A stretch of 64,000 bases of DNA from a virus. The stretch lies in the UHGV virus genome UHGV-0101699; one strand, given 5' to 3'. Below, in pieces: positions 5,026 to 63,607 of this stretch (position 1 is the first letter of the stretch; each line of letters starts with the position of its first letter). Both the position numbers and the translations under genes were made by a program. The notes beneath the pieces were generated by a model. It was not told the DNA's origin, made no database searches, and saw only the letters and a program-made list of their open reading frames with translations.

Positions 5026-5144
5026 TTTTACCTCCATGTAAATGCGTCGTAATACTATCGCCGTAGGTAAGTACTTACAATACAAAAAAGCCCCGAAGGA
5101 TCGACGGGGCTGTCGTAAATTCGACTAATCTGTGTTGCACATGA

Positions 5145-5456
5145 CTATGCTATGGCGAGGGTTGTTGCGCGTTGAATTTCCTGCTGGGCGACCTTGTTAA
5201 CTTCCAGTAAAGCCAACTCCAGATCTGACTCAGGCCAGATAACTTGTTTAGCTACCCATCCTTTCCCACTATGGCGCCGGACGTTCATTACAATGCGCTT
5301 GCGAGAAGTTTCGCCGAAGACGACAACGGTCTCTTTGAAAAGTCGGATGGCTGTGCCGTTGGCCACTATGTCCAGTAAAGTGATCGAACCGAGTACTGCA
5401 GGTTTGTCTTTGCGAGGCTGGAGCTTATCCAGTTTCAAAATCATCTCGGTATTCAT
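5145..5456 (-). CDS. hypothetical protein (start MNTEMILK)
   Basis: ORF with early motif immediately upstream (5466-5500). Confidence 0.5.
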   Translation of the reverse strand: MNTEMILKLDKLQPRKDKPAVLGSITLLDIVANGTAIRLFKETVVVFGETSRKRIVMNVRRHSGKGWVAKQVIWPESDLELALLEVNKVAQQEIQRATTLAIA

Positions 5457-5592
5457 TACACACTCCGTAAACAATTTGTTTTCTTGTTTGTGTAAATAAT
5501 ACCAGTGTGAAAACGGCCACCAAGCGAAGCGTTCCGGCATTCAGCTGGCCGCAGGCCACATTCATTAAAAAGCCACCTGCTGGTGGCCGTGG

Positions 5593-5805
5593 TTAATCTT
5601 CGTCAGGGAACTCCTCTTTCACTGCGGCCACCAGCTCCCGCTTCTCTTCATCAGTCAACAGGTGCCACACGTCCTTCCCTTTTGGTGACTCTCCCTTAGC
5701 TGGTACAAACGACCATAATTTACGGGTCAGTGCTGGCCCTACGCCATCAAGACACTCAGCCAGCGAGTCCACGCTCCATACTTCCACAATCACAGGCATA
5801 TCCAT
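5593..5805 (-). CDS. hypothetical small protein
   Basis: 70-aa ORF in minus-strand early gene array. Confidence 0.5.
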   Translation of the reverse strand: MDMPVIVEVWSVDSLAECLDGVGPALTRKLWSFVPAKGESPKGKDVWHLLTDEEKRELVAAVKEEFPDED

Positions 5806-5817
5806 TGTCTCTCTCCT

Positions 5818-6036
5818 TTATCTGGACTCTGACGTTGTGCAGTTCCACGCGACGGACATTGCGTTGTCCTCGATATGAAAATCAAACGTGCCCTCGCGAT
5901 ACCCTTCGCCAATCAGCGTACCAATGCGCCCAGCGACATCCGCAGAGCGGATAACGTCATCCAGAGAGATCTGGAGTTCGTCAGTACATGTCTCTTCTCC
6001 GCAAAGGGTGATGCTGATGTTCAAATGCTTGTACAT
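5818..6036 (-). CDS. hypothetical small protein
   Basis: 72-aa ORF; early motif at 6057-6125 upstream. Confidence 0.5.
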   Translation of the reverse strand: MYKHLNISITLCGEETCTDELQISLDDVIRSADVAGRIGTLIGEGYREGTFDFHIEDNAMSVAWNCTTSESR

Positions 6037-6375
6037 GTTTTTCTCCTCTGTCTAAACACGTTGTTTTCTTGTTGGTGTTATTATCGCAATAAGACATAGG
6101 CGAAAAAGCATTTTGTATCGGGGAGAACTGGAAAAGCAGTGAGTATCCGGGAGTGTATCGGGAGCGCTTTTTACATTATTCTTCTCAACGCGCACCGCAG
6201 GGCTGGTGGGCAGTATTTTCCTCTTCCCGAAAACCTGCTGAAACAGCTTGTGACCCTCGAACGCTCTGGCAGAATACGAATCAGCAGCTGCGCGCAGCGG
6301 GAAGAAAGCCACCTGCGCACCAAGGGGTGTACCGCCAGAGAATCAGCCGTCCCCGCGGCATTTTGTCTCTATACC

Positions 6376-6580
6376 GGCACGCACCCTTTCCATGACGGGA
6401 ACCCAGCCGTTTCCCGAAAAATCTCCAGCCGTTTCTACTCAGGCAGCCAGCCTTTCCCCTGCGGGGACGCTCCCGATAGATTTTCGCGGTGGCCCTTTCA
6501 CTCGTTCGACCGCAGGGATGTTACGGCCGATAAAATCAGGACTTGAATAAATACGGGAAAGGGAGCGATCCCCCTCCATC
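6376..6580. repeat. non-coding repeat element copy 2
   Basis: See copy 1 at 2995-3142. Confidence 0.5.
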
Positions 6581-7586
6581 CCCTCTCTCTTATATCTGTG
6601 CTCTTTCCTGACTCGAATAACCTCTCTTATGGGGGACTCGTATCTCTCTTATTAGCGCTCTATACGGTGACCATTCGTATGGGAGAAAAGGCAACTTTCT
6701 TCTCTCTGCCGGTAAGTGGTTTTGCAGATGTTGTAGAGGTGGTGGTCTTGTGGTTTTACTCTGGTCTGTATTCTTCGTTTTGGGGATAGTTCTTCTCTGT
6801 GTATGGAGTGATGGCGTGCGCGCTTTTCCTTTCGTTCATCTTGAGAGGTGGAAGTGTGGGTGATGTGGTTTCTGGTCTGTTGTCGTTCTCCGCATGTGAA
6901 GTAATGGCGTTCCCTACTTATCAGGAATTTGCGTTATCTTTCGAGGTAAGAGTGGGTAAACGAGATGGCGCCGGGTACTGTTCTGGCCTGGTCTTGTCTG
7001 GAGTTTCTTCCCGGGTATTCTCTTCCGTGTATTGGGGAATGGCGTTCAGAGAAACTGGCTTTCTCTCGCCGCTTTTTGGTGGTGGTCGAGATTTGCTTCA
7101 TGGGGTCGATAGCCTGGGGCAATGAGGTTGGTCTTTTCGGTAGCCTGGCAGGAAGAGGTGGGTATTGCCTGGGTGTGGGGAAATGGCCGTTCCTTTTCTT
7201 CGTTATCTTGTTTTGTTGTTTTCTTCTTGCCTAAAACAATTTGTTTATATACTCATTAAACGCAACCAGAGCGATTCTGAGCGTGTCTGTTTTGTGGTGG
7301 TATCAGGAGTCGTTTTTGGCGTTTTCGTCGCAGGGTGTTGGTCTCTGGTACGCTGCTTAACGGATATAAGAAGTGACATGGCAAAACGTCAACTTTTGAG
7401 ACCAAATCAGGGTAAAGCGTTGACTTTTCATTGATGTGTTATTTATTTGTTTTCTTGTGGGTGTTATGTGCGTAAAAGCCTTGCCACGCCTGGAGTGTAT
7501 GAGGTTGGAGGGTAGGGGAGAGGGGCGATCAACGAGTTCTTATAGAAATCCTCAATTAGTGACCGCCAATGTCAACGCGTTGCAGG

Positions 7587-11743: not shown

Positions 11744-11804
11744 GTGTGTTTCCCTCTTAATTTCGCGTCATCATTTTTACACATAATAAGTATGTAGTTA
11801 CCTA

Positions 11805-13490
11805 TTATTTTGTTCGTTTGAAGACATACACACTGACAGTTATCCCCGTGTCATCAAACTCGCCTGTGTACGACTTACCTTTGGCGTAGACGAAATTATC
11901 CAGCATCATCCAGCTCAGTGTTGGTGAGTCCCCCGGCAAAACAGCAACAAGGCGCCCACCGACTTTCAGATGTCCCAGCCCAGCCAGCGTGTGTTCTTTG
12001 TGGCGCCCGAGAGAGTAGGGTGGATTCATGACTATCTTGTCGAAGAGGTAGCCTTCATTGTCAGCAGACCACTTCATGAAGTCACAGCAGACTGTGTTCA
12101 CGTAGCCTTTACCAAGAAGGATGTCAGCAAATAGCGGCGCAACCTCAACACAGGTCACGTCCTCAGGATTCGCCTCAATAAACGTAAGCAGATCTCCGCG
12201 ACCAGCTTCCGGCTCCAGCAATGTTTCGCCAGATTTCAAGTCAACGACCTTGGCCACGTACTCCGCGATTACACGAGGGGTAGGGTAGAACTGATGTGAT
12301 TTTGCATCCGGCATCAAACCTGTCGCCACAATCGTATTGAGTGTTTGACCGATCTCATACGGGAACTGCCAGTGCTTTTTATCCTGTACGCCGCCAATGA
12401 AGCTCAATGTGCGCTCCAACTCTTCAACCTGCGACTTCTGGAGACTGGAATCAGAGAAGTACCAAACCCCCTTGTCTTTGCTGAATCGCCCGTCACGTAA
12501 AGTGGATCGAACGGGCTCAGAGATGGTCTTTTGAATGAGGCCAAACTCCTCAGGCGCTCTGGTTTTTGGGGCTGTTCGGCAGGGGGCAGGTATAGCGGCC
12601 GGCATACTGTACGCCAGCACCTCATTAAGCTTCCAGGCAACATCTGGGTGGATCTCAAAATGCACATTACCGTTCTTGAACATTTTCACGCGCATGAGGT
12701 TACCATCCACGTTGATCCAATCACCCGTCTGGCAATCATTTGCCCGGTACGCAGCCGATAGCATCTCTGTTGTGCGGTTAATGGTGATGAACTCCTTATG
12801 CGCAAAGAAATGCAGCATTACACGCAGGTCATCGATGTAATCCTCTTTCCGATAGTTCACGCTGACACTATCCCGCCAGAACTCTGAAATGCAGCTGGCG
12901 ATGATCAGACGCTCGCTAAAGCCGTTCGTTTTATTGGTCTTATGCGCAGGGCTTAGCGCCTTAAACAAACCGTAAACGCGCTCAGAGAGATATTTATGCC
13001 TGTCATTCAGCAGATTGACCATCGTGGGGATGACCGTCTCTGCTTTGAACTCAGGTACGCCAACGAACTCCTTAACCTTCATCTGGTAGCCGGTTCTGTC
13101 AGTCTTGATGGTTTCCTGCTTGCCTTCTATGAACTGTTCGCGCCATTCATCTCGGCGGGAAGCTGGCATGATCAGCAGAACGTTTGTCATATCCGTGACC
13201 TTCTTCCAGTATTCGGCCCAGATATTCTGCTTCACCCACTCAAGATCGACCTTATCCAGCCAAGCTCTGTTGAAGCGTGTGCGTTCGTCATCCGGCCGGT
13301 GGTTGAGTCGAAGCAGGCGGTTAATCATGTTGTGACGCTCATCGCCATAAACGAAGTCGTGAACCTGGTGCATGAACGCGATCTCTTTCTCGCACTCGGC
13401 AACGATGTCATGGATGACGTTCATCTCTTTGCTATGGTCGATACCGGTGTTCGAAGCAAGAGACTCAAGGACAGAAAGCGCTGTACTCAT
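11805..13490 (-). CDS. DNA methyltransferase with large N-terminal domain of unknown function (probable N6-adenine, NPPY motif)
   Basis: C-terminal EPEAGRGDL (SAM-binding motif I) ... VMNPPYS (motif IV); about 360 aa N-terminal extension. Confidence 0.7.
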   Translation of the reverse strand: MSTALSVLESLASNTGIDHSKEMNVIHDIVAECEKEIAFMHQVHDFVYGDERHNMINRLLRLNHRPDDERTRFNRAWLDKVDLEWVKQNIWAEYWKKVTDMTNVLLIMPASRRDEWREQFIEGKQETIKTDRTGYQMKVKEFVGVPEFKAETVIPTMVNLLNDRHKYLSERVYGLFKALSPAHKTNKTNGFSERLIIASCISEFWRDSVSVNYRKEDYIDDLRVMLHFFAHKEFITINRTTEMLSAAYRANDCQTGDWINVDGNLMRVKMFKNGNVHFEIHPDVAWKLNEVLAYSMPAAIPAPCRTAPKTRAPEEFGLIQKTISEPVRSTLRDGRFSKDKGVWYFSDSSLQKSQVEELERTLSFIGGVQDKKHWQFPYEIGQTLNTIVATGLMPDAKSHQFYPTPRVIAEYVAKVVDLKSGETLLEPEAGRGDLLTFIEANPEDVTCVEVAPLFADILLGKGYVNTVCCDFMKWSADNEGYLFDKIVMNPPYSLGRHKEHTLAGLGHLKVGGRLVAVLPGDSPTLSWMMLDNFVYAKGKSYTGEFDDTGITVSVYVFKRTK

Positions 13491-15760: not shown

Positions 15761-15902
15761 TGTCAGAAAGAGTTGCGGCTGGAATGTCCAGCCGCCGTTT
15801 TTTGCGTTCCATCCTTGGAACCGTGCCTAACCAGCACGTTGTCATCCTGACGATGGGTAAGATACATGATACATAATGATAGGTAAATACTTACTTATCA
15901 TT

Positions 15903-16502
15903 TTATACCAAAAAACCAGCATCTTTTTTGTGTGGAGTATCCGCTGCCGCATATGCTGCGATCTTGGCCAGCCTGTCGCATATTTCGTTTTCTCGATGCC
16001 CGGCGTGGCCCTTTACCCAGTTCCACCTGACATTGTGGCGACTGGCGGCTAAATCGAGTCGTTTCCAGAGGTCGACATTCTTAACAGGCTTCTTGTCAGC
16101 AGTGATCCAACCATTTTGTTTCCACCCCTTCATCCAGAGGGTCATACCATTTTTGAGATACTGGCTATCTGAGTGCAGGATCACGTTGCAGGAGAATTTA
16201 AGGCGTTCCAAAGCTATCAGGGCGCCCATCATCTCCATGCGATTGTTTGTGGTGCTGTGGAAGCCGTCGGAAAACTCGCGTTCTTCGCCGCGGAACTGAA
16301 AGACGATGCCATATCCACCGGGCCCGCCTGGGTTTCTGAGACAAGAGCCATCACTGAAAACTTTGACCGTCTTAAACCGGGGATTAAATTCGACAACTGG
16401 CGTTTTGAAGTTTTTGCGGGGGTGTTTTTGATACTGGTGCTGCGCACGGCCGGCTGCCGTTTTTCGTCTGGCGTGTGTGCTTGTCGTCATCTCTAACTCC
16501 AA
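15903..16502 (-). CDS. rnhA: ribonuclease HI
   Basis: [18 protein letters not shown] ... [16 protein letters not shown] ... [17 protein letters not shown] ... WVKGHAGH is near-identical in motifs to E. coli RnhA; basic N-terminal extension. Confidence 0.85.
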
Positions 16503-17069
16503 AGCGTGCGCCGCCGCCCGTTTTTCCTCGCGCGTGTGCGCACGCGTATTTATACATATTTATTTTCAATAAATTACTTCCCAGATCGGGTTTATTTTTA
16601 CCTGAACTGAGCGAACGAAGTGAGTGAAGTTCACCTCGAACGAAGTGAGAGGTTGTCTTTTCAGGTAATACTCTCCCAGGGAGGTGAGTAAAAAAATCCT
16701 CACCAACCTGGTCGTTTCATAACCTGAAAAGTTATGACCTAAGTCTACTGCCAGCTTAGGCTTGGGAAGTTATGGATGACAGCACCCCAGAACCGAGATC
16801 TTCCCACACTTCATGAAGGGGAGTACTGGATTCAACCTCTCAAAATACCCAGACTCGACAATCATAAAGTGACCCTTCTCTCTGCCCACTTTGGTTCCCC
16901 CTTCCCCAGACCCCAAAAGGGCTGGTTCTGCGCTGGTTGTGGGCTTTTTTAAGTCTGGTGCCAGTGACGCTATCCTCCACCCACCAGACCGAGATTTCGA
17001 TTCAGGTCGAAATCGACATCATTCTACAACCACTATGATACATCGTAAACGGTAACTACTTACTTACTT

Positions 17070-17321
17070 TTATGACTGATCATTTTGTCTACCATGAAGC
17101 TGAACTTGCAGGGCAAAAACCTCGTTGATTAGCTCGCCAAGGAGCTGCTCAATCAGGTCTTTGTGTTCGCCAGTGTGCAAACATTTCAGTGACCACTCGT
17201 AAAGACTGAATGCCTTTTCACGATCCTTCATGAGTTCGCGAGCGTTAGCCAAAAAATCGCTCTCAACGAGCGCTACAACGTTGGTCGGGTATGCCATGAT
17301 GGTTTCCTTACTTGTCTTCAC
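17070..17321 (-). CDS. hypothetical small protein
   Basis: 83-aa ORF flanked by two copies of the GGTAAGTACTTACC-type motif. Confidence 0.45.
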   Translation of the reverse strand: MKTSKETIMAYPTNVVALVESDFLANARELMKDREKAFSLYEWSLKCLHTGEHKDLIEQLLGELINEVFALQVQLHGRQNDQS

Positions 17322-17494
17322 AAAAACGATTCTATAGCGTCTGGAAAGGGGTTCCAGAGTGGTCTGGGCGTCTTGTTTCGGTCTGGGAGTGGTCTGGAAT
17401 CGACAAGGAAAAGCCTGCTTTCGTATATGTTTATAATTAGTACTTAGTTATTTATATATACGAAAGCAGGTTATGAAACGCTCCCAGACTCGGA

Positions 17495-18088: not shown

Positions 18089-18272
18089 TTTACAATCCAA
18101 TAGGTAAGTACTTACCTATTTTTTCATGTCATCTTACGAATGGCAAATAAAGAAAAAACACGCCAGATTGCTTAACGGGAGACGCTCTGGCGTGTTTTTT
18201 ACTGTTGGGGCATACGAATAACTGTCCAACGCTCTAAAACTATCAGGGGGCTTCAGAGCGCGAAACGGATCG

Positions 18273-22594: not shown

Positions 22595-22595
22595 A

Positions 22596-23699: not shown

Positions 23700-23892
23700 G
23701 ATGACCTCAAATGATAAGTATGTACATACCTATCATTTTAAACACAGAGAAGACATCCAGGCTAGAAATTAAGTAAAAAAATGGTGGCCACGGGGCCACC
23801 AACGCTCAACTTTATCGAAAATAAAGATTGATAAGGATAGAAATAGACAATAGATCACACGTCCATTTCAATATATATTGATAAGTTAGTAC

Positions 23893-45318: not shown

Positions 45319-45440
45319 TTTCATTTCGGTAATCTATCCGCTGCGATAACGATGACGGCCTGAGCCTGAGTAGTCAGTTTGGAAGGATTATTGGAAGGAG
45401 TTAAAGGTCGTTAGATCTGGACGGCTTCTCTACTAACTCC

Positions 45441-47802: not shown

Positions 47803-50162
47803 ACTCCAAAATCAACAATATCAGCGTTATCACCAATCGCTTCGTCATAGGTTCTGCGTTTGCCGTCAGAGCACATCAGCTTGGCCTTTTTGTGGACTTC
47901 TACTGTGCTTCCGTTTTCAAGTGACAGTGTCACCCAACCTGCTTGCGCTCGTTCTACAAAATCGCTGCCGATCGCTTTCATCTTATCCATGTTCTTTTTA
48001 CCGATAGCGGAACGCAGAGCGTCAGCCTCAGCCATAGAGAATCCAGCGAGTACGCGAGAGCTTTTCATGATCTGCTCTTGATAGAGTAAAACGCCGTTGG
48101 TTTCTTTAGTTGCTTCCTCAAGACGCGGATGAATTGAATGTGGAGCCATAAAACCTTTTGCCACGGAGACATAGTCGTCCAACATGCCTGACTGAATTGG
48201 ACCTGGTCTGAAAAGCGCAGTTGTGGCCACAATGGTTTTGAAGCTCATTGGCTCGATACCACCACCCAGATCTTTGAGTAGCTTCCTCATGGGGCCGGAC
48301 TCAAGCTGGAACACACCTTGCGTATACCCCGCGGCGAATCCATCAAGTACTTTGCGATCATCCAGTGGGATGGCATCGAGGTTGACGTCCTTACCGGTGC
48401 TCTCTTTGATGTAACGTTTTGCGCTATCCAGCAGATCGAGAGTGGCCAGGCCCAGAACGTCCAGTTTGATCAGCCCCATGGCCTCGCAGTATCGTTTATC
48501 GAATGCGATGCAACGCGCGTCTCCACGTCGCTCTACAGGGGTACGTTCCGTCAGAGGTACGCCAGCAACAATCATCCCTGCAGCATGGCGGCCGAAGCCA
48601 CGCATCAGGTTTTGCAACTTGCTCGCCGCCTTAAATGCGTCCGGATGTTTGGTGGCGTACTTGTCCAGGCTGGCCAGCTGCTCGCGCAGCTCCGACAGAG
48701 ATAAACTGTCATCCTCCAGGGTCTTTAGCTCCTTGGAAACAGCCATATCCGCCGCATCAACTCCATAAATACGCGCTGTGTCGCGCAGTGCGGAAGCGGC
48801 GCCCAGATAAGTGAAGTTCGGAATGCCTGCAACATACTCTTCGCCATATCGGGCATTCAGATACTCGATCACCTCATGGCGCCGCGCCTGGCTAAAGTCC
48901 AAATCCGCATCCGGCAAGTCGAGACGTTCAGGGTTAATGAAACGTTCGAACAGAAGACCATGACGGATTGGGTCAACGTTAGTAATGCCGATGCACCATG
49001 CCACCAGAGAGCCGGCGGATGAACCACGACCTGGCCCGACAGGAATACCAGTCTCGCGACTATGATTCATCAGATCGCGAACCATCAGGAAATAACCGCA
49101 GAATCCCAGGCGAGTGAGCGTTTCCATTTCATACTTGAGGCGATCGACGTAAATGCGGTGCTCGGAAGCTGGTGGCGTGTAGCCAAATTCTTTGTTGCTG
49201 AGACGTTTTCGAAGCCCTGCGACAGCCAGTTTCATCAACGTTGCAGGCTCATCGTCTGCCATTTTTGGCAGCGCCGGCGCCATCTCGTGCCAGCGCCATT
49301 CGCACGCCTTAACAATGGAGTCCTGCGTTGTAGAAGCCATGGCGGCAGACACAGATACGCCCATCCGGACAGAAAACTCTTTCAGAGCCTGCAGCAGATG
49401 ACGGCGACCATTTATTGCATTGTCGCGCTGGTGGGGGATACGCAGCCGGTGTGGCTGATCGACTTTGATATTGTTCATCACCATGTGGGCGATGTCTTTG
49501 ATGTCAGCGTCATCAACCCCTTCGTAATAAGCTGGGTAAAACGCAACGGGCTCGATTTTCAGTGCGCTTGCCACTTTCATGGCTCGCACGTTGATCTGGT
49601 CATAGAATGGCGTAGGGTGTGGATATACGACGCTGTAGAAATTATCGCGTCCACCGGCAGTAATCAGCGCACTAATAATTTTAGCGAAGTCCGGGCGCTG
49701 GAATACGCTGCCGATATCCGAAGTCAGTAACAGTATATTGCCTTTAGCGTATGTAGCCGCCAACTGGTCGAGCGCCAGGCGTGGCACGAAGTAAAACTGC
49801 TCGCGGGTATTGGCTAAAGTCATTAGTTCGCAAATGTCGCGATAACCTTGCTCGTTTTTAATCAGTGCGGTGAAGCAGTAGTTACGTCCACGCTCCAATG
49901 ATTCCATACATCCATTAGACTCTTTAGCCAGTTTAGCCCGGTACTCGTATGTTGGATCGTCGACAACATTCAGCTTAACACCACAGATCACCGCCATCTC
50001 ATCGCCAGCTGCTCGTTGCAGGGGGATAACGCTGGCGATATTCATCGTGTCAGCAGAGATAACCGCGGTATAGCCAGCCTCCTTTGCCACCTTTACTGCG
50101 TGCTCTGCTTTCAGTGCTGATTCTCCCAGGGAAAAATCAGTCCTGACCATCAGTGCTTTCAT
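47799..50162 (-). CDS. dnaE: DNA polymerase III alpha (DnaE-type) N-terminal fragment (PHP + polymerase core)
   Basis: PHP-domain N-terminus; GPGRGSSAGSLVAWCIGIT polymerase motif; ends with a 40-aa tail with no counterpart in E. coli DnaE. Confidence 0.85.
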   Translation of the reverse strand: MKALMVRTDFSLGESALKAEHAVKVAKEAGYTAVISADTMNIASVIPLQRAAGDEMAVICGVKLNVVDDPTYEYRAKLAKESNGCMESLERGRNYCFTALIKNEQGYRDICELMTLANTREQFYFVPRLALDQLAATYAKGNILLLTSDIGSVFQRPDFAKIISALITAGGRDNFYSVVYPHPTPFYDQINVRAMKVASALKIEPVAFYPAYYEGVDDADIKDIAHMVMNNIKVDQPHRLRIPHQRDNAINGRRHLLQALKEFSVRMGVSVSAAMASTTQDSIVKACEWRWHEMAPALPKMADDEPATLMKLAVAGLRKRLSNKEFGYTPPASEHRIYVDRLKYEMETLTRLGFCGYFLMVRDLMNHSRETGIPVGPGRGSSAGSLVAWCIGITNVDPIRHGLLFERFINPERLDLPDADLDFSQARRHEVIEYLNARYGEEYVAGIPNFTYLGAASALRDTARIYGVDAADMAVSKELKTLEDDSLSLSELREQLASLDKYATKHPDAFKAASKLQNLMRGFGRHAAGMIVAGVPLTERTPVERRGDARCIAFDKRYCEAMGLIKLDVLGLATLDLLDSAKRYIKESTGKDVNLDAIPLDDRKVLDGFAAGYTQGVFQLESGPMRKLLKDLGGGIEPMSFKTIVATTALFRPGPIQSGMLDDYVSVAKGFMAPHSIHPRLEEATKETNGVLLYQEQIMKSSRVLAGFSMAEADALRSAIGKKNMDKMKAIGSDFVERAQAGWVTLSLENGSTVEVHKKAKLMCSDGKRRTYDEAIGDNADIVDFGV

Positions 50163-51575: not shown

Positions 51576-51671
51576 GTGTTTTTCCTTACTTGTTGTCGTT
51601 TCTGGGCTCTATTCTATACAAATGTATCAGGCTTTATAGTAACTAGTTACTTATTTTATAGGGCGCAAGGT

Positions 51672-53951
51672 TTACTCTAAAATGATACGAGATAACTCGC
51701 TGACAACTGACGTACCCAACTCTTCGACCTTATTCACTAGCGCATAGTTTTTGTAATACCGGCGCGGCGCGTCCGTAAGAATGCCAATGGCCAACAGGTT
51801 GATGTCACTTGTGTTTTCGATGTCATTCGTTACAGAGCGCAGATGGTTACTAAAGCCATCCCCCGCAGCGCATGGGGCGCCGTCGCTCTGCACAATCATG
51901 ATCTTCTTGTCTTCCATACGCCCTGCAAACAGAGAAGCCAGCTGTGCGATGCTCTCGCCATCCACGTTGTTTAGCAGGGGGAAAGTCTCCGCCACACAGC
52001 CCATACGAGCACGTATCTCTGGGGAGTTCGCTTTTTCATGCCAGTTTTTAATAATCGGCAGCATAAGCGCTTCAAAGCGGCTAAACCCACGTTTCGACAT
52101 AGTTGCTACATCCGGATTGCCATACGTAGTGAAGCCGGTAATGACGTTCGGAACGTGGATACGATCTAGGGCGTCAGCCAGTGTGTATGCGGATGCCAGC
52201 GCGAGCTCGATTTTTCGGCCGCCCATTGAACCTGACAAATCGATGACCTGTTGAACGCACGCGTTCACGGCCTTGTGGTCTTCTTTTCTCCGGAATACCC
52301 GATCGTCATTCATCGACAGTCGGTAAAGACTCGCCCCATGTACGCGTCCACGACGCTGGCCAGGGATGAACTGAACACGGTTACGACTGGCGATCGCGCG
52401 CTCCAGGTCTTTGGCCAAGGTAGATGACACCGAGGAAGACAGATGTCTCTCCACCTTCATCACAAACAGTTTTCTGCCCTCTGGAACAATGCGGTAGCGA
52501 TCTACGGGAGAATACATAGGGATTGCGCCAAAAGCTTTTCTGGCGCGCTTAATATGCTCTTCTGCCTCGTCAATTGGCCCCAGAAAGTCGTAGGAGCGAT
52601 TGTATGGCCGGTAATCAGATAGTGACGCGCTGGCCAGCTCCGACTTGATCGCCGACGCCAGCGCATCTTCGGTTGAAGAACCTATCTCTTCATCGACGTT
52701 TTCTAATGCCTTGAGAGCATCATCAAGAGACATATCGTCAGCGTGTGGGGCAAAGCCGGCATCGCTTTCATCCGAGGTGTCCCGACCCCCTTCATCCTTC
52801 TCCTTGCCACCGTCTTTATCTGCCTTGCCTTCACCGTCTTCGACAGCTTCGCTGTCATCAGAGGAGCTGCCATGCCTGTCCTCTGAGCCATCATCCGTGG
52901 ACGGACTGTAATCCCCTTCATCATCTACTTCTTCCCCTACATCCGAGCCCAGAGATGTAACAGGATCATCAGCTGTCGTTTCTTCGCTGTCAGGCAAGTC
53001 GTCAACATTTTCATGGCCTAAATCGCCATCTTCAGGTTTACTTTCTGTATCATTTATTACTTCATCACTGTTAGGTATGTGCTTACTTATCGATTTGTCT
53101 GATTTTTCATCATCTTCATCGTCAGAGCTAAACCCATCAGGAGTGCTTTCGAGCCCCTCTTCGTCACAAACCTCAGTATCGTCTCCAGCAGCCGGCTCAT
53201 CCGAACTGTCTTCTTCTGGTTCGGTCTTTTTGGTTACAGAGGATTCAAGCTCAGGTAACGGGCCTTCTGGCATCTCAGTCATTTCACGCAGGATCTTCGC
53301 CATTGCTGCAGCAACCTTGACGCAATCCTCAGTGCTATCCATACGACGAACAGCTTCATCGACGCCAAACTCTTTCAGTACGGCAATAGGTTTATCGATG
53401 AGGTGCCAGTGCTCCTCCATGAAATCAACAAAAGTTGGTTGGCCATCCCACGCCCGTAGAACCGGACAGAGGAAGAACTTTAGAAACAACTCGCGTTGAT
53501 CCCCGCGGCACATCGCTACCGCCTTTTTAATGTGGGGATTAAAATATTTATCAATCATTAGGTTACGTGTGGACAATAGGTTCCGCCGGCTGCCGGTGAA
53601 CACTTCACTCATGCGACGTTCGATGTAGACGTCTTCCAGGGCGTTCCAGAGTCCGAATGCCTTTGTGTTGCGCATTTTCTTGACGACTTTTTCGTCTGTG
53701 AAAAGGAGATGGCCAACCTCGTGATCAAGGAATCCACGTATGGCATTCATAAGCGCAGGGCTTGCGTCATCTGGTATGGATGGGATGTTAACCATGACTG
53801 GCTCACCCTTTTTATTGTAGCGAACGTATGCTGTGTCTCCGCATTCAGCTACAGGAATATTCTTGCCCGAAAGAAGACCAACGACGCGTTTTACGGAATC
53901 GCGGAAGTCCTGTACCTCTTTGAGTACAGTTTTGCTGGGTTTGGTTGCCAT
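51672..53951 (-). CDS. CobT-like protein with central acidic/Ser-rich low-complexity region and C-terminal von Willebrand A domain
   Basis: MIDAS-like DLSGSMGG ... vWA fold; start MATKPSKT with ACACATG context. Confidence 0.65.
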   Translation of the reverse strand: MATKPSKTVLKEVQDFRDSVKRVVGLLSGKNIPVAECGDTAYVRYNKKGEPVMVNIPSIPDDASPALMNAIRGFLDHEVGHLLFTDEKVVKKMRNTKAFGLWNALEDVYIERRMSEVFTGSRRNLLSTRNLMIDKYFNPHIKKAVAMCRGDQRELFLKFFLCPVLRAWDGQPTFVDFMEEHWHLIDKPIAVLKEFGVDEAVRRMDSTEDCVKVAAAMAKILREMTEMPEGPLPELESSVTKKTEPEEDSSDEPAAGDDTEVCDEEGLESTPDGFSSDDEDDEKSDKSISKHIPNSDEVINDTESKPEDGDLGHENVDDLPDSEETTADDPVTSLGSDVGEEVDDEGDYSPSTDDGSEDRHGSSSDDSEAVEDGEGKADKDGGKEKDEGGRDTSDESDAGFAPHADDMSLDDALKALENVDEEIGSSTEDALASAIKSELASASLSDYRPYNRSYDFLGPIDEAEEHIKRARKAFGAIPMYSPVDRYRIVPEGRKLFVMKVERHLSSSVSSTLAKDLERAIASRNRVQFIPGQRRGRVHGASLYRLSMNDDRVFRRKEDHKAVNACVQQVIDLSGSMGGRKIELALASAYTLADALDRIHVPNVITGFTTYGNPDVATMSKRGFSRFEALMLPIIKNWHEKANSPEIRARMGCVAETFPLLNNVDGESIAQLASLFAGRMEDKKIMIVQSDGAPCAAGDGFSNHLRSVTNDIENTSDINLLAIGILTDAPRRYYKNYALVNKVEELGTSVVSELSRIILE

Positions 53952-54299: not shown

Positions 54300-54554
54300 C
54301 AGGTTTCATTTGGAGGTGATGGTACTACCTATTGATATAAAAGTTAATAAAAATGTATCGTAATGTCTTAAACAAAAATAATCAAAAAAATCAACAGAAG
54401 TACCGGATTTTACTAATTTATACCTTATTTCGTGTGATTTATGTGCGATAATTGCCTACAAATAGCCGGATGTAAGACTTTACAATAATAACCGTTGCTG
54501 TAATATCGGTAAGTACTTACCATACAATAAGATCACACGAGGATAGTAACTACA

Positions 54555-54935
54555 ATGACAATGGCCGATGAGAAGACCGCTCGTTACGTCGCCTACATCG
54601 ATTCTTTAATCACTGTTTCGCCGAAAAGTCAGTCGGCGATCTCCCGTGAGATTGGTTACAAGAATCCCAACATTTTGTCCCTGATAAAAAAGGGAAGAAT
54701 TCCGCTGCCGGTAGAGAAAGTGCTACCACTGGCAGAAGCACTGAATGCAGACCCAGTACGTCTCATGATGATGGTTCTTGAAGACCGTCAGCCTGAGCTG
54801 GCAGATTTTTTACGAGACCAGGGCATAGCGCCGCTGACTCCGGAAGAACGTGAGGTTCTCGCAGCTTTCCGCAACCGCTTTCCGGCTCAAACTGATGGTG
54901 TTGAGCAGGTTGTGGAAGCAATTAAAAAGCTATGA
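54555..54935 (+). CDS. HTH DNA-binding protein (XRE/Cro-like)
   Basis: SQSAISREIGYKNPNILSLIKKGR helix-turn-helix; plus strand, convergent with recombinase. Confidence 0.55.
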   Translation: MTMADEKTARYVAYIDSLITVSPKSQSAISREIGYKNPNILSLIKKGRIPLPVEKVLPLAEALNADPVRLMMMVLEDRQPELADFLRDQGIAPLTPEEREVLAAFRNRFPAQTDGVEQVVEAIKKL

Positions 54936-56030
54936 GAAGTTTACTCTGATCAGCTCGGTGGATAGGCGATCTCCCTTCATTTTGTGGTCAATTTCTTCTA
55001 AATCTGGTTGCTCAACAATCGACGAGATGTACGATGAGAAGCTCTCAAGGGCTTCTCGCATCTGATCCATGTAGTCATATCGGTCGTATACACGGTCGAT
55101 ACCTTCCAGACTATGATTCATGATCTTACGTGATACTTCCTGAGAAATATTAAGGGCTGGAAAGTAGCTGCGTGCCGTTCTACGCAGATCACGTGGGGTA
55201 AACGACTCCACTTCCCCAAGCTCTGGTCGCTCTAGAATCCGCCTCAACGCCTGGGCTATTGCAACCTTTGACATTGGCGTATCAGCTTTCTTTTTGTTCG
55301 ACGGGACGAGCCACTGGCTGCCGGCGCCATAAGCAATCAATTCTTCTACGCACTTCCGCATCAGTGAGCTCATCGGAAGGGTGTGCGACCGGGCCGATTT
55401 GTTGCGAGACCCTTGATTCCATACATTTAGCTTAAGGTCGAACTCGCTTACTCTGGCCCGCAGCACTTCATCTGGACGTCTGGCAGCTACGAGGCAAAGC
55501 CTTGCCGCCCATTTCGTGCCTGGACATACGTCGAAATAGTCCCAGACATTCCAGAATACCCAAACCTCTGCGTCCGTCAGGCATCGTTCCCGCGGGGCCG
55601 TCTTCGCGCCGCCGGCAACTTTGTTCAGCGACATATCATTCAGGGGCGATGTTTCGATAATTCCCTGGAAGGCACACCATCCCAGGAACTGCTTCATGAT
55701 GGAAAAAACACGGCGACCCATCACGATCTTCCCTTCAAGGATCAGCGGGTTGACCAGCTGATTCACCATTATTCTATTCAGGTTACTTACTTTTTCCTGA
55801 GCGATATGCGGGAGAACATGTATCAAAACACAATGGACAGCTATCTCGGGCCGGCGGCGAGTTATCAATAATGATAAGCGAGTGAATAACATGAATGCGT
55901 CGGCGAAAGTCAGATCGGCTCCCTGCATCGAGACCGATCTGGCATCCATCTGCGATGCCCGATCCAGATAGGTGATCGCTTCCTGTGACGTGTTTTCCGC
56001 TGCGCGTGCTCTGTCAAACGTGTTTTTCAT
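54930..56030 (-). CDS. tyrosine site-specific recombinase
   Basis: C-terminal catalytic domain with R ... HxxR ... Y pattern (ARRPDEVL, SHTLPMS, RDLRRTARSY ... Y). Confidence 0.8.
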   Translation of the reverse strand: MKNTFDRARAAENTSQEAITYLDRASQMDARSVSMQGADLTFADAFMLFTRLSLLITRRRPEIAVHCVLIHVLPHIAQEKVSNLNRIMVNQLVNPLILEGKIVMGRRVFSIMKQFLGWCAFQGIIETSPLNDMSLNKVAGGAKTAPRERCLTDAEVWVFWNVWDYFDVCPGTKWAARLCLVAARRPDEVLRARVSEFDLKLNVWNQGSRNKSARSHTLPMSSLMRKCVEELIAYGAGSQWLVPSNKKKADTPMSKVAIAQALRRILERPELGEVESFTPRDLRRTARSYFPALNISQEVSRKIMNHSLEGIDRVYDRYDYMDQMREALESFSSYISSIVEQPDLEEIDHKMKGDRLSTELIRVNFS

Positions 56031-59350: not shown

Positions 59351-59444
59351 ATTGAGTCCTTTCAAGTGAGTAACCAGACGAACTATACCTAAAAGAGAAC
59401 GCAAAAGTAAGTAAGTAGTTACATAACAACAAGAGCGCTTATGC

Positions 59445-59621: not shown

Positions 59622-59708
59622 TTGGCGGAGGATAATGGAATCGAACCATCATCGCTTTCGCAATGGGACGGTTTTCAAGACCGCTTGGGCGCCATGCCCT
59701 CTATCCTC
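59622..59708 (-). tRNA. tRNA-Ser (anticodon UGA), CCA encoded
   Basis: GGAGGAT acceptor, anticodon arm GCGGTCTTGAAAACCGT identical to E. coli tRNA-Ser(UGA), long variable arm, T-arm GGTTCGATTCC. Confidence 0.75.
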
Positions 59709-59856
59709 CGTTCGTTGTGACGCCAGATGCTTATCTTCTGGTTGCTTCAACGAGCTGCAATTCATCACAACGGTAAGGGCATTCAGGGAATCAGATCCGT
59801 CGCGAACAGCCAAAGAGCGCGCCTTCCTTGCTGTCGTCCAAATACCCTTACCGTTG

Positions 59857-59931
59857 TGGCGATGGTGGGTGGATTCGAACCACCGACCAGTTGATTAACA
59901 GTCAACCGCTCTACCACTGAGCTACACCATC
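59857..59931 (-). tRNA. tRNA-Asn (anticodon GUU), CCA encoded
   Basis: GATGGTGTAGCTCAGTGGTAGAGC D-arm, anticodon loop CTGTTAA, T-arm GGTGGTTCGAATCCACC, 7-bp acceptor. Confidence 0.85.
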
Positions 59932-60860
59932 TAAGGTTGACACCGTCAGCCTCTGTCGATTCACGGACTTGTGGGGCTGTATCGCCGATTCACCGGTGTC
60001 GTTCGCAGCAGTCCTACCGCTTTCTGCCACTTGTGCTTTACGTATTCACCAAACGCTTACAAGCCAAGATCTTCAAATACTCTCCGAGGGTTGAGGAGGG
60101 CTTTCTTTCAGATCTAATTGGATGTATGGAATCATTTAATCGTTGTGGCCACGGGGCAGTGACAACAATGGCTATAACCAGAAGGATAATGAATCCGTGA
60201 CCACAACGTTGAGACCACTGGACGGATTAATGTACTTGGCCCTACATGTCTGCCGGTTCTGCCTCTGTGATGCAAAAACCAGTGGTCTCAACGTTGCGTG
60301 CTGGCTCACCTAACCAGCCGGGTTACGTCGCCATTTTTAACCCAAAACTAAACGACATAAGTAACAGAAATGACGTAACAGGATAGACGGTCGGGCCTTT
60401 GGGAGCCGGGATGTGTTGGACATAAAACCCAACCGCCCATTCTGTTACCTCATCGGTAAGGGCACTGGTTAACCAGATGCCCTACCTGCGTTTTGCAATC
60501 ACACTCGCTTAGTGTGTCCCATTTCGGTGACGAGGCTGGAAACTGACCTCGCTGGTGTTTAGCTTTTTAGGCTACTGCCAGGTACTGATTGTCGTTTGCA
60601 GTTATCTTTAAACGTTCAAACAGTCGCGTTTCAACGAAAACAAGCCAATCATAGTTGTATCAATTTAATAAGTAAATACTTACCTATTATTTCATACGTC
60701 AGTTTGATCATTTTTTGATCAGTACTGGCTTCTCATCCTGCGTCCGTTGGATTGTGGCCGTTAAACGTTTGACTCTGATCAATCGCACTTTCTTAGATCT
60801 GTAGCAGTCACCTGTTCTACGTTGTTAATACATTTTGTCGTCTATGAACGTATAAGTGAT

Positions 60861-61277
60861 TCACACAATTTTACTTATCCATCCTTCGATAACATCATAG
60901 GCCACATAGCTTTTCGCGATAACAGTTGTCGCTATTACAAAGAACCATTTATGCTTTCCCACAAATCTTTTCACCTTTTCATATTTACTCAGTGATCCCT
61001 CGTAATACTCAATCAGAGTAATCCACTGCTGAATTTGCTCTTTATAATGATTACAAAGATTTTTATTTATTTGGGCTTGCTGCAACGACCGACTCCTAGA
61101 CAACCAACCACCAGTAACTGGTGGCTTAATTTCAGGCAGTTCAGTATCAAATTTAGTACGTTGTTGGTTAAGCCGATCAACAACAACACGAAGTTCATCT
61201 GCGGTGAGATCATTACGAGCATAAATATCTTTCAGTTGAGCTAGTGTCATATGAAGCACTCTTTTGGTTGATGACAT
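60861..61277 (-). CDS. hypothetical protein with C-terminal transmembrane anchor, in AT-rich DNA
   Basis: 138-aa ORF, low GC (about 35%). Confidence 0.45.
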   Translation of the reverse strand: MSSTKRVLHMTLAQLKDIYARNDLTADELRVVVDRLNQQRTKFDTELPEIKPPVTGGWLSRSRSLQQAQINKNLCNHYKEQIQQWITLIEYYEGSLSKYEKVKRFVGKHKWFFVIATTVIAKSYVAYDVIEGWISKIV

Positions 61278-61424
61278 TAATTATACCATCTTCAGATATG
61301 CTCTGTAGGAGTCGCCCCGTGGAGCTACAGAAATGTAAGTTACGGGCAAACTTCTTAATCAAGTCATGACAGATGATGAAGCCAAGGGCGACGCCTCCAA
61401 AAAAAGACAATACGATGTATGGAA

Positions 61425-61640
61425 TCATGAGTATTCTCCTGCTTCAATCAGTTGCTCAAGCAGCTCTCGCCCCTTATTCGTTAACTGGTAGTTCTCTGCC
61501 TTTCCTTCCGGTTCGACATTGGCCACCAGGTTCATCTGTTCGAGCTTGGCTCGTGTCTTGGGTTTCCAGTTAGCGTAGAAACATGACCATTGGCTGATTT
61601 CACGCAGGGTTTCCTTCTCTCGCTTACTCAGGACGATCAT
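61425..61640 (-). CDS. hypothetical small protein
   Basis: 71-aa ORF. Confidence 0.45.
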   Translation of the reverse strand: MIVLSKREKETLREISQWSCFYANWKPKTRAKLEQMNLVANVEPEGKAENYQLTNKGRELLEQLIEAGEYS

Positions 61641-61742
61641 CGCCAGTCTCCTTTAGCGTGTCAGTAATGTCGATGATGCGGTATACGCGGCCACGTCTTT
61701 CCATCAGCCCGCGCTTCACGTAATCGTTGATGCAGCTGAGCA

Positions 61743-63065
61743 TCATTCTTTATCTCCGACACGTTCTTCGGTATCGCGAAGGCATTTGGGCCACTTAAGC
61801 CGCGGATGACGCAGACTGCCATCTGGCGTGTACTCGTGAAAATTCACCTTAACAATACGGCCCATGTACTTGTCCTGGTTATGCCAGATCTCATCGAGGT
61901 AGCGATGTTTGATTCCAGAAGCGCGAACCTCGGTTCCATCTTCGAGGCGAATAACGATTTTGCCGAGCGTATGAGCAAAGCCGGCATCCGGATCTCCGGG
62001 TAGAAAGCCGATAATCTCCCCATCAGCTTCGTTTTCATCTTTTAGTTTCCACCAGCTGCGGGTGCGCTTGAACTCGTATACAGAATCCGGGTCTTTGCCC
62101 ATCTCTCCTTCTTCGTTATCGTCCAGACGCTTCATAAACCGCTCTACAAAGTCTTCATGGCTATAGATGATGTAGAAGGGGTGCATATGAATGTCAGTCG
62201 CGTAATCCTGGCCGCGTGTATTTCTGAACCAGGCCACCAACAGTGAAAGGCGCTGTTTCAGCTTCATACCGTTCTTCTGGTATTCGACTGTTTTAGCCTG
62301 TACGCGCCACTCTGGTAGGAAGAAATCGAAGATATGATAGGTTGCGCCAACCGCCTTCACGTTCTTCTTGCGTAGCGCTGAGACTGAATTGTTAAAAGAA
62401 CCTGCAGTACCTTCACCATCGAAAAAGATGTGTTTGTAGCCGGAGAGTTTGCCCAGCTCCAGCATGGCAGGTTTCAGGTGATCGAGAGATGTAATCGGGT
62501 TTCCGGTACGCGACAGAAAGTTAACCTCTTCCTCGTCCACGATCACTTCACAAATAACCCGAAGACCATCCAGTTTGAGGCTGCCTATCATTGGCCATCT
62601 GGCTTTGGGATTCGCCTTAAATGGGTACTTGTCGCCTTTTTCTTTATAGGCGGTGGACAGCTGCACCTCAAACTTTGGGATCGGGTTGGCGAATACCTTA
62701 TTGCATAGACTTATGCCGACGCCGGCTTTCGGGTCTTTCAGCAGGAACCGGCGAAATACGTCCTGACCGTCTGCACACATCGAAGCAACCAAAGACTCGA
62801 CCGCAGTAATGGCTGCGTTCCCCGTAAGCTCCCGGGCAGCCAGTTTCTCCAGCAGCTCTATCGCTTTCTGATCACTGGGTACGGACTTGCTAAGTGGATC
62901 GGCCACTTTGTATTTCTTCACCCCGAAACGAACAAATGGGTTCAGCATGAGTGACACCATTCTTTGTTCGAAGTCATCCATACTGGCCAACGCCTCTTTC
63001 TTGGCGTTCGTTCCCATTGTTTTAATGGCGTCCAGCTTATGTTTAAGCGCGATCAGCTTCTCCAT
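61743..63065 (-). CDS. ATP-dependent DNA ligase
   Basis: KLDGLRV adenylation motif I; downstream nucleotidyltransferase and OB-fold motifs. Confidence 0.85.
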   Translation of the reverse strand: MEKLIALKHKLDAIKTMGTNAKKEALASMDDFEQRMVSLMLNPFVRFGVKKYKVADPLSKSVPSDQKAIELLEKLAARELTGNAAITAVESLVASMCADGQDVFRRFLLKDPKAGVGISLCNKVFANPIPKFEVQLSTAYKEKGDKYPFKANPKARWPMIGSLKLDGLRVICEVIVDEEEVNFLSRTGNPITSLDHLKPAMLELGKLSGYKHIFFDGEGTAGSFNNSVSALRKKNVKAVGATYHIFDFFLPEWRVQAKTVEYQKNGMKLKQRLSLLVAWFRNTRGQDYATDIHMHPFYIIYSHEDFVERFMKRLDDNEEGEMGKDPDSVYEFKRTRSWWKLKDENEADGEIIGFLPGDPDAGFAHTLGKIVIRLEDGTEVRASGIKHRYLDEIWHNQDKYMGRIVKVNFHEYTPDGSLRHPRLKWPKCLRDTEERVGDKE

Positions 63066-63532
63066 TAGTCGGTCTTCTCCTTTAAGGTTTCTTTGATAAG
63101 TTCTGAATAAATCTCGCTGGCATCCGGCAGTCTGCCAGTTTCAGCAACGGTCGAAGATTGGCGCTTCCCTTTAATTCCACTGTAGATAGATGCACTGCCT
63201 CTCTTCGGCTGCAGAGTTCTTGCTGTTCGGTTTCTTTCCTCCACCTCTTCAATGAGCGCCGGCATATCGACGAAATACAGCGACTCACCTTGCCGGATTT
63301 CCTCCACCATCATTTTCAGCGCCTGGCATTTTCCGGCCGAAATGGCGTTCGCACAGGAGGTGAACGATGACGCCGGCAGTCGCTTCTCTTTGAAGGCAAG
63401 GATCGTGTGCTGACAGACGGTGTAGCTGCAGTACGAGGCATGTCCGTTAAGCTTCACTTCCGGGCAACGCAGCGAGTAGCCGTTGAGTCCAGAGATCGAA
63501 GGGATTTTTGATAAGTCAGTTTTGGTAGCCAT
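63065..63532 (-). CDS. hypothetical protein (155 aa)
   Basis: ORF coupled to ligase. Confidence 0.5.
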   Translation of the reverse strand: MATKTDLSKIPSISGLNGYSLRCPEVKLNGHASYCSYTVCQHTILAFKEKRLPASSFTSCANAISAGKCQALKMMVEEIRQGESLYFVDMPALIEEVEERNRTARTLQPKRGSASIYSGIKGKRQSSTVAETGRLPDASEIYSELIKETLKEKTD

Positions 63533-63607
63533 TTCTCTAAACGATAATCTTGTACTTACTAATCAGTTTAAATAACTCTGTACGGGGACACAGTACATAG
63601 TCACGGC

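Follow-up and report, generated by a model that had tools for sequence, protein, structure and literature searches.

The virus genome UHGV-0101699 was analyzed over a stretch of 64,000 nucleotides, hereafter the window, which carries about 20 copies of a palindromic DNA element of 20-26 bp. The consensus of the element is AATARGTAAGT|ACTTACYTATT (the bar marks the center), often extended to ATGATA...TATCAT. The copies form one family of symmetric sites that lie mostly between genes, are conserved in relatives, and co-occur, except in phage SSU5, with a gene for a protein of the XRE family. We propose that the element is the operator of a repressor encoded by the phage-plasmid itself, most likely the XRE protein at 54555-54935, and we give this proposal about an even chance of being correct.

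Megablast placed the window in the SSU5 group of phage-plasmids, as part of a Klebsiella element. Its identity is 98-99% with the Klebsiella phages GArcari-2022b, ST13-OXA48phi12.3, and pJN2-26, about 78% with Salmonella phage SSU5, and about 76% with Escherichia phage Cyrano (pLF82). It represents about 64 kb of a genome of about 110 kb and contains genes for replication, recombination, and nucleotide metabolism. Nearly all of its genes are on the minus strand, and there are two small regions of plus-strand genes. In the searchable literature, we found nothing on this motif, nor on regulation, lytic-gene silencing, or switching in the SSU5 group.

A symmetric site family between lytic genes

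The element had been predicted from the sequence as a quasi-palindromic 20-mer repeated at least 19 times, and each of the 19 centers listed at that time indeed has a motif copy no more than 11 bp away. The 14-mer core GGTAAGTACTTACC occurs eight times in the window with two or fewer mismatches, as compared with 0.10 times in shuffled sequences. The window was also searched with a symmetric weight matrix of 26 columns. The matrix gives 24 matches of at least 12 bits (0.3 in shuffles) and 19 of at least 16 bits (0.0 in shuffles), and adds to the 19 listed copies one further clear copy at 53068-53093, which is intragenic. Although open reading frames (ORFs) make up about 85% of the window, 18 of the 20 centers fall outside them (binomial p = 1.6e-13).

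Mirrored positions in the element show mirrored base frequencies, and the site is symmetric. Mild asymmetry is found in the flanks only, where the upstream flank is A-rich and an A is found at position +12. The copies had been described as all having the same orientation, a statement that carries little meaning since the site is palindromic. Each half of the motif holds a repeat with an offset of 4 bp (TAAG-TAAG), and the center and arm positions are conserved to an equal degree, T-5/A+5 and G-6/C+6 being invariant. In 44 sites from the window and SSU5, complementary arm pairs number 358 against 358.4 expected under independence (permutation p = 0.53), and a variant in one arm is almost never compensated in the other. 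No T-run was seen after the motif on the gene strand, and an Rfam scan gave no match at the motif sites. The independent variation of the arms suggests that a symmetric protein reads two half-sites on duplex DNA, rather than that an RNA hairpin has been selected. These features point to a protein-bound site on double-stranded DNA.

The positions of the sites relative to genes are heterogeneous. The distances from the center to the likely start codon are 12, 22, 22, 25, 42, and 48 nt for six sites. A distance of 10-45 bp upstream of a start codon, as originally predicted for every copy, applies to about six of the 19, whereas the remainder lie 53-192 nt upstream or have no gene within 260 nt, the latter being the case for sites 17057 and 60677. 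Nor does every copy precede a start codon on the minus strand, as had been supposed: site 54514 sits 41 nt upstream of a plus-strand gene. The terminators also vary in place; some copies follow one, and others are located between a stop codon and a terminator hairpin.

The sites are retained in the relatives. SSU5 and Cyrano carry about 25 copies each, mostly at orthologous positions, at a DNA identity of about 77%. The part of pJN2-26 outside the window carries about 10 more, and the total is about 20 copies in the window and about 30 per genome. In pJN2-26, the gap of 32 bp between terL and the portal gene consists almost wholly of the motif. Elsewhere in this genome, copies lie close to the 3' end of the portal gene and behind the genes for the major capsid protein and tail protein M; others precede the major tail gene, the holin gene, and a ParB-like operon. 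Copies are likewise present in the late regions of SSU5 and Cyrano. The element had been assigned to a regulon for replication and nucleotide metabolism. This assignment is too narrow, since the same site occurs in late and structural intergenic regions of pJN2-26, SSU5, and Cyrano, and its presence among both early and late lytic genes argues against a replication regulon.

The form of the element depends on the lineage. The enteric form is TARGTAAGT|ACTTACYTA. The form in the Acinetobacter lineage is TTAGTAAGC|GCTTACTAA, and ZW85p2 has about 30 copies of ATATTAGTAAGC|GCTTACTAATAT (0-2 in shuffles). The form in the Aeromonas lineage is TCAGTAAAT|ACTTACTGA, and pKAM376_1 has about 28-30 copies of TGATCAGTAAAT|ACTTACTGA.. 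(0-5 in shuffles). The form in a third lineage is TTAAGTAAGT|ACTTACTTAA. All versions have the inner TAAG(Y)|(R)CTTA in common, and the outer tetranucleotide and the center differ. Separately, viral contigs in IMG/VR that are unrelated to SSU5 (AT-rich, about 41% GC) each contain one strong (TAAG)3 T|A (CTTA)3 palindrome, adjoining a conserved 'gtaacctctttac' sequence.

The XRE-family protein as candidate binder

Regulators that are present in all motif-bearing lineages are an XRE-type helix-turn-helix (HTH) protein, a winged-helix protein of 88 aa, and two proteins that consist of a ParB N-terminal domain only. The XRE protein is the most likely binder, judging from its promoter, its distribution, and its predicted fold.

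The σ70-type promoter of the XRE gene, TTTACA-16-TAATAT, is followed by GTAAGYACTTACC, i.e., GTAAG(T/C)ACTTACC. Both the hexamers and this sequence are invariant in eight classes of relatives, the repressor proteins of which are 57-100% identical, and the spacer and the flanks vary. Since the core GGTAAGTACTTACC begins 2 nt past the -10 hexamer, it covers the predicted transcription start of the XRE gene. A second sequence resembling a half-site overlaps the -35 hexamer. Degenerate or nearby copies of the motif also precede the XRE homolog in the Acinetobacter and Aeromonas plasmids; in the latter, the homolog is recognized with an HMM E-value of 1.4e-11, and the site is 67 nt upstream. The original prediction had offered a phage-specific promoter or an operator, and the second of these gains support from the symmetry of the site, its occurrence in intergenic promoter-like regions, and the copy that covers the start region of the repressor promoter.

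XRE homologs are found in 872 PLSDB plasmids, from Klebsiella, Escherichia, Enterobacter, Yersinia (pMT1), Salmonella (pHCM2), and Acinetobacter. The gene is absent solely from SSU5, a free plaque-forming phage. The closest plasmid relatives of SSU5 (91-93% identity) possess a segment of about 3 kb, containing an integrase gene, at the XRE locus. The absence is consistent with what is expected if the XRE protein is the immunity repressor and SSU5 a deletion derivative. In Escherichia coli LF82 lysogens, the Cyrano ortholog CYRAN_45 is transcribed tenfold above the prophage background, and it has been listed as a putative master repressor (PMC9928086).

The recognition helix of the XRE protein reads KNPNN, NQNM, or KNQASM by lineage, in parallel with the motif variants. 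In an AlphaFold model of the protein, the N-terminal 70-75 residues or so resemble the HTH of XRE, Cro, P22 c2, and controller proteins, with target-normalized TM scores of 0.65-0.71. Small proteins of this fold that act on a palindromic operator at their own promoter are known among both the Cro/CI proteins and the controller (C) proteins, and the arrangement at the XRE gene is alike. C proteins of the C.Esp1396I type bind in the form of two dimers, a mode that would suit the double half-site structure found here. Cro/CI-type systems usually have 3-6 operators clustered in one immunity region, with variable operator centers. The sites described here, in contrast, are dispersed genome-wide and have a highly conserved center.

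From the sequence, we infer binding of the sites, repression as the direction of regulation, and the XRE protein as the binder. The copies occupy short intergenic gaps of genes in the lytic direction, the early genes and, in the relatives, also the late genes. Each palindrome would be bound by one symmetric dimer or by a pair of dimers. Initiation would be blocked where a site lies over a σ70-type promoter, and a site between co-directional genes would probably act as a roadblock to read-through. Jointly, the sites would silence about 100 kb of lytic genes for as long as the element persists as a plasmid prophage, and the XRE protein would limit its own synthesis via the copy at its promoter (54502-54527). 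Loss of the repressor would then open many transcription units at once. An antirepressor may bring about this loss, because a peptidase domain is missing from the XRE protein and ciprofloxacin induces Cyrano (PMC9928086).

Several observations weigh against the XRE protein acting through these sites. SSU5 retains about 25 good sites without the XRE gene, which is explained only by a recent deletion. The AlphaFold model is of modest confidence (pLDDT 65), and Foldseek gave weak E-values only (0.08-0.5). The center of the motif, GT|AC, is among its most conserved positions, whereas conservation is poor at the centers of classic Cro/CI operators. This conserved center and the 4-bp-offset repeat in each half look more like binding by two dimers. 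Many sites are without a convincing -35 hexamer, and for those an operator at a promoter is only partly demonstrated. Furthermore, the 88-aa winged-helix protein encoded just upstream of terS (85-107 aa; 6742-7008 in the stretch of pJN2-26 analyzed, pJN226_0055 type; SSU5_130; and CYRAN_123) has homologs in the Acinetobacter and Aeromonas plasmids and in the third lineage, i.e., in every motif-bearing lineage. Since it is kept wherever the motif occurs, this protein could be the binder instead.

Other candidates were rejected as binders. The FljA-like protein (709-1260), a winged-helix protein of 68 aa (61437-61640), and a protein resembling P1 Cra are restricted to the enteric lineage and absent from the motif-bearing Acinetobacter and Aeromonas plasmids. 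The ParB-like proteins are conserved, but they have the N-terminal domain only and no recognizable HTH, and no motif copy is located near parA.

Promoter signals and other readings of the sites

The promoter signals around the sites are variable. Between positions 4001 and 64000 of the window, hexamer pairs of the σ70 type are fewer than in shuffled sequences (10, 16, and 15 per 20 kb against shuffle means of 20-22.6). The best σ70-like score within 25 bp on either side of the sites has a mean of 8.8 bits on the gene strand and 7.6 bits in antisense; the corresponding mean for random positions is 4.5 bits. The sense score is higher than the antisense score at 68 of the 94 sites (p = 1.4e-5). 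The best -10 hexamers are scattered relative to the center, at -14, +7/+8, +10, +15, or +24. It had been stated correctly at the outset that the element does not fit a σ70 -35/-10 geometry relative to the start codons, and -10-like hexamers are found in variable register around the palindrome. This variable register suggests operators rather than activator promoters of fixed geometry.

The phage-specific promoter of the original prediction, by comparison, was not supported. No RNA polymerase gene was found in the window or in the enteric genomes, no sigma factor was detectable in the enteric lineage, the -10 register is scattered, and most Aeromonas copies are without a fixed -10. A promoter for a phage RNA polymerase or a phage sigma factor was rejected, the enteric genomes encoding no RNA polymerase and no detectable sigma factor. 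Only the Acinetobacter ZW85p2 record contains a gene of the σ70 family (92323-92988), next to a MoxR-like ATPase gene; BLAST gave no counterpart of this sigma factor in the enteric genomes.

The sites could alternatively be activator-dependent lytic promoters like the Lpa late promoters of P1, a reading that we regard as unlikely. A small dimer on the palindrome near -19 would replace the -35 element, and host RNA polymerase would use a TATCAT/TATAAT-like hexamer at the downstream edge. The 88-aa winged-helix protein upstream of terS is the candidate for this activator. Its gene is outside the window and is present in all five lineages, at the usual position of a late activator. The copy on the repressor promoter would then switch off repressor synthesis in lytic growth. 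Such hexamers do occur. Of 44 enteric sites, about 15 have TATCAT or TATTAT at the downstream edge, and of 30 Acinetobacter sites, about 9 have CTATAAT there. The palindromic edge in the GC-rich Aeromonas plasmid, CTGATCA, does not resemble a -10; only 4-5 of about 30 sites bear TATAAT, TAAAAT, or TAGAAT instead, in the gene direction and downstream, never at the mirrored upstream edge. Most sites have no -35, and σ70-like pairs are depleted in the window.

However, the TATCAT/TAATAT-like hexamer at the downstream edge belongs to the palindrome in the enteric and Acinetobacter forms and is mirrored on the other side, where TAnnnT is found 11 times as compared with 14 times downstream. A fixed -10 geometry was tried in three lineages and is not general; the best positions are scattered, and most Aeromonas sites lack a -10 at a fixed position. 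At the terL-portal junction, a transcription start at +20 from the center would fall within the Shine-Dalgarno sequence. A protein over -29 to -8 is also more likely to occlude RNA polymerase than to recruit it. The heterogeneity of the sites fits operators or roadblocks, not an activator that needs a fixed geometry.

The resemblance to P1 itself is superficial. P1 has 11 late promoters with an inverted repeat of 9 bp (AAGTTACTT at LPhot, against AAGT|ACTT here) and a -10. A short inverted repeat near a -10 without a -35 is therefore shared, and in both systems a small regulator gene lies directly upstream of the packaging genes. The P1 repeat, however, is arranged around a central base and precedes the -10 by about 14 nt, whereas here a palindrome of 20-26 bp overlaps the -10-like hexamer and the geometry is not fixed across sites or lineages. 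The winged-helix protein at the analogous position is unrelated to Lpa, and tblastn of P1 Lpa against four genomes detected no homolog (no match with E below 0.29).

Another reading, which we consider quite unlikely, is that the sites are bound by the host nucleoid-occlusion factor SlmA, a protein of the TetR family acting as two dimers, either alone or alongside a phage protein. Tonthat et al. gave the SlmA-binding sequence (SBS) as GTGAGTACTCAC, in which positions 1, 2, 4, and 5 must be G, T, A, and G, position 6 may be any pyrimidine, and position 3 any purine, the change from G to A giving a Kd of about 60 nM as compared with about 50 nM (PMC3020112). The later SBS consensus of 20 bp is GTAAGTGAGC|GCTCACTTAC, and the natural SBS17 is AAAAGTAAGTAAAT|GGTCACTAAC (PMC4423959). 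SlmA binds DNA as two dimers (PMC6018408). The phage motif ATAAGTAAGT|ACTTACTTAT obeys the SBS rule GTRAGY|RCTYAC, as do GTAAGT|ACTTAC and the Acinetobacter GTAAGC|GCTTAC. The motif also shares the 20-bp extent, the TAAGT flank, and the internal repeat with a 4-bp offset with the longer consensus and SBS17 (PMC4423959). Matches to the rule number 3 exact and 12 with at most one violation in the window (0.1 and 1.6 expected), 3 and 17 in SSU5, and 10 and 29 in the Acinetobacter plasmid (0.09 and 2.8 expected). Apart from the transposon TetR(B), which served as a positive control, no TetR-like protein is encoded in the window, SSU5, Cyrano, or the Acinetobacter plasmid. The SlmA of Klebsiella pneumoniae is 93% identical to that of E. 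coli.

SlmA might prevent septum closure over plasmid copies, block division at lytic amplification, or act as a transcriptional brake supplied by the host. Cells become tenfold more sensitive to SlmA when a multicopy plasmid supplies additional SBS (PMC4117426), and SlmA can regulate transcription in Vibrio cholerae (PMC5519180). The distribution of the sites, however, differs from that of the chromosomal SBS. About 90% of the motif sites (18 of 20) are intergenic, as compared with about 8% (2 of 24) of the E. coli SBS, none of which is in a promoter (PMC5519180, PMC3020112). The chromosomal SBS number 24-52 per 4.6 Mb, against about 30 sites per 110 kb here. The base preferences also deviate. 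The motif always has A/T at the two tolerant positions, and the enteric sites never carry the G of the chromosomal consensus at position 3. The motif drifts between host lineages, its three lineage-specific variants differing in the outer tetranucleotide and the center, although a conserved host protein should keep its site constant. The Aeromonas plasmid has no exact match to the SBS rule, because the essential position 5 is mostly A there (mostly GTAAAT). The matches of the SlmA protein search were from Enterobacterales only, with none for Acinetobacter. Constitutive host SlmA on both repressor and lytic promoters would provide no obvious switch. With about 100 known palindromic motifs available for comparison, a chance resemblance to the SBS is not negligible.

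Incidental binding of SlmA at the exact-match copies 5067, 18104, and 54509 is nevertheless quite plausible. If SlmA were the binder, about 5 plasmid copies per cell would bring about 150 SlmA sites, against 24-52 on the chromosome, and the phage-plasmid would carry more high-affinity SlmA sites than the host chromosome. Division arrest at lytic amplification would then be due to a division inhibitor made of DNA sites, not of protein. Even if SlmA only binds in addition to a phage protein, a mobile element would be linked to the septum-placement machinery of its host.

Finally, a role as an RNA or structural element (an mRNA hairpin serving as terminator, processing site, or stabilizer, a DNA cruciform, or a gene-boundary cassette providing stop codons or homology for module exchange) is very improbable. 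In its favor, a stem of 9 bp closed by a GUAC loop can form, an upstream stop codon is overlapped by several copies (11805 in the window and the terL stop in relatives), TAA or TAG occurs in two frames on each strand, and unrelated viral contigs carry single (TAAG)n(CTTA)n palindromes. The hairpin and the terminator were rejected, however, for the lack of covariation between the arms, of a T-run, and of an Rfam match. Moreover, loop and stem are equally conserved, separate GC-rich terminator hairpins adjoin several copies, and G-6, G-2, C+2, and C+6 make no stop codons yet are conserved equally.

Related regulatory systems and other features of the window

With the sites taken as operators of a phage-plasmid repressor, the nearest counterparts of the architecture appear to be the C1 operators scattered over the P1 genome and the stoperators of mycobacteriophage L5; it would differ from both by palindromy and by a probable XRE-type binder. 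P1 is likewise a plasmid prophage of about 100 kb in which one repressor acts on many scattered operators before lytic functions. According to the P1 annotation, these operators overlap σ70 promoters in various registers and also sit on the promoter of the repressor itself. P1 operators are, however, asymmetric 17-mers recognized by C1, a protein of 283 aa unrelated to XRE, whereas the sites here are palindromes of 20-26 bp. The late operons of P1 are under the separate control of Lpa, whereas the same site is used throughout the late region of the relatives here.

The stoperators of L5, reportedly described by Brown et al. in 1997, are said to be gp71 sites of 13 bp that are asymmetric, orientation-dependent, and bound by a monomer. 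They resemble the sites here in their number (about 30 copies per genome) and in their location in short intergenic gaps of both early and late regions, often at gene boundaries without a recognizable promoter, which is consistent with silencing by an elongation block. The sites here differ in being palindromic with only mild asymmetry of the flanks, and a roadblock role is a candidate function for them.

The coordinates of the motif copies and of the XRE gene with its promoter are listed in Table 1.

Table 1. Motif copies in the window, and the XRE gene with its promoter
Feature	Position	Strand	Context	Score or remark
Motif copy GCCGTAGGTAAGT|ACTTACAATACAA	5060-5085		After terminator-like hairpin; 48 nt upstream of ATG 5025	17.9 bits; core is an exact match to GTRAGYRCTYAC
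Motif copy	11783-11808		Overlaps stop codon of upstream gene (11805); 53 nt upstream of ATG 11743	33.8 bits
Motif copy ATGATAGGTAAAT|ACTTACTTATCAT, full 26-bp palindrome	15876-15901		14 nt past upstream stop codon	34.7 bits
Motif copy	17045-17070		Followed by about 550 nt without convincing ORF	23.7 bits
Weak motif-like core	17429-17454		Inside inverted repeat of about 70 bp, CCTGCTTTCGTATAT...ATATACGAAAGCAGG; possibly a different element	14.8 bits
Perfect core GGTAAGTACTTACC	18097-18122		22 nt upstream of Dam methylase ATG 18088; TTGCCA-17-AAAAAT just upstream	31.8 bits
Motif copy ATGATAAGTATGT|ACATACCTATCAT	23711-23736		25 nt upstream of thymidylate synthase start 23699	33.3 bits
Motif copy	23878-23903		Directly past stop codon of upstream gene; overlaps TTGTAA-17-TATATT	19.3 bits
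Motif copy	28465-28490		Between upstream stop codon and strong terminator hairpin (28440-28461); 56 nt upstream of nrdA ATG 28422	30.3 bits
Motif copy	33157-33182		126 nt upstream of sbcD-like ATG 33044	32.5 bits
Motif copy	37038-37063		Right end overlaps ATG 37039 of 59-aa ORF; TTTACA-17-TAGTAT over center	28.3 bits
Motif copy	37211-37236		Right half good, left half degenerate (plus strand)	18.0 bits
Motif copy	39513-39538		After terminator (39552-39570); overlaps best σ70-like pair of the window, TTGAAA-17-TATCAT; 42 nt upstream of ATG 39484	32.6 bits
Motif copy	44286-44311		Upstream of gp32-like SSB gene (ATG 44202 or 44253)	28.5 bits
Motif copy	51632-51657		70 nt upstream of MoxR/CobS-like ATPase ATG 51575; TTTAGA-17-TAAAAT directly upstream	20.8 bits
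Additional motif copy	53068-53093		Sole clear copy within a coding region (CobT-like gene)	20.0 bits
Core GGTAAGTACTTACC	54502-54527		2 nt past -10 of repressor promoter; 41 nt upstream of plus-strand ATG 54555	Core invariant in 8 divergent classes of relatives
Motif copy	59404-59429		After terminator-like hairpin, downstream of tRNA genes; 67 nt upstream of ATG 59350	28.3 bits
Motif copy	60665-60690		About 750 nt upstream of tRNA-Asn; no ORF start within 260 nt	34.3 bits
Weaker motif copy	63541-63566		22 nt upstream of ATG 63532	16.9 bits
σ70-type promoter of XRE-like repressor gene, TTTACA-16-TAATAT	54479-54506	+		Hexamers invariant across relatives
XRE-family HTH protein, 126 aa	54555-54935	+	Adjoins integrase gene (54930-56030, minus strand)	PHROG transcriptional regulator; NCBI homologs named XRE family regulators

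An inverted repeat of about 70 bp, composed of CCTGCTTTCGTATATAT, an AT-rich core, and ATATACGAAAGCAGG, is present in 2-3 copies per genome (about 17405-17478 in the window, about 78300-78365 in SSU5, and 31188 and 78108 in Cyrano). One copy spans the start/end of the SSU5 and Cyrano records, just upstream of terS. The repeat could be a packaging site, a replication site, or a bidirectional terminator. In the minus-strand direction, the roughly 550 nt past site 17057 (about 16500-17050) contain no convincing ORF, and the gap is kept in SSU5 (78718-79147). The annotation of the Cyrano counterpart has only a 44-aa ORF, CYRAN_81, and this ORF is 12-fold over background in lysogens. A small RNA may be encoded in the region.

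The plus-strand ORF 709-1260 encodes a homolog of the Salmonella phase-1 flagellin repressor FljA (Pfam PF03614, E = 1.8e-72; PHROG 'transcriptional repressor'). The gene is kept in SSU5 and Cyrano and is absent from the Acinetobacter and Aeromonas relatives. Rfam gave a full-length match to the cspA thermoregulator (RF01766, 188.6 bits) at 44928-45351 on the plus strand, opposite to the lytic genes, which suggests a cold-shock protein gene carried as cargo. The genes for tRNA-Ser(TGA) (59623-59709) and tRNA-Asn(GTT) (59857-59931), both on the minus strand, lie between motif copies 59416 and 60677.

The gene for the α subunit of DNA polymerase III appears as three consecutive minus-strand ORFs (47799-50162, 47077-47802, and 45911-47080), whose combined length exceeds that of the single 3.5-kb gene in ST13-OXA48phi12.3. 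This region (45911-50162) may contain an insertion, for example an intein or a homing endonuclease. The Acinetobacter relative has a NUMOD4 gene inside its split polymerase region.

Phage-plasmids of the SSU5 type comprise at least 870 sequenced plasmids and are very common in clinical Enterobacterales. The group includes pHCM2 of Salmonella Typhi and pMT1 of Yersinia pestis, and some members carry resistance genes. As a set of operators, the motif is not surprising; its usefulness comes from the abundance of the family among clinical isolates. The motif can serve as an annotation signature for SSU5-type elements. With a defined operator mapped at about 30 copies, a named candidate repressor, and a promoter at which this repressor would regulate itself, the silencing of lytic genes in these elements becomes experimentally tractable.

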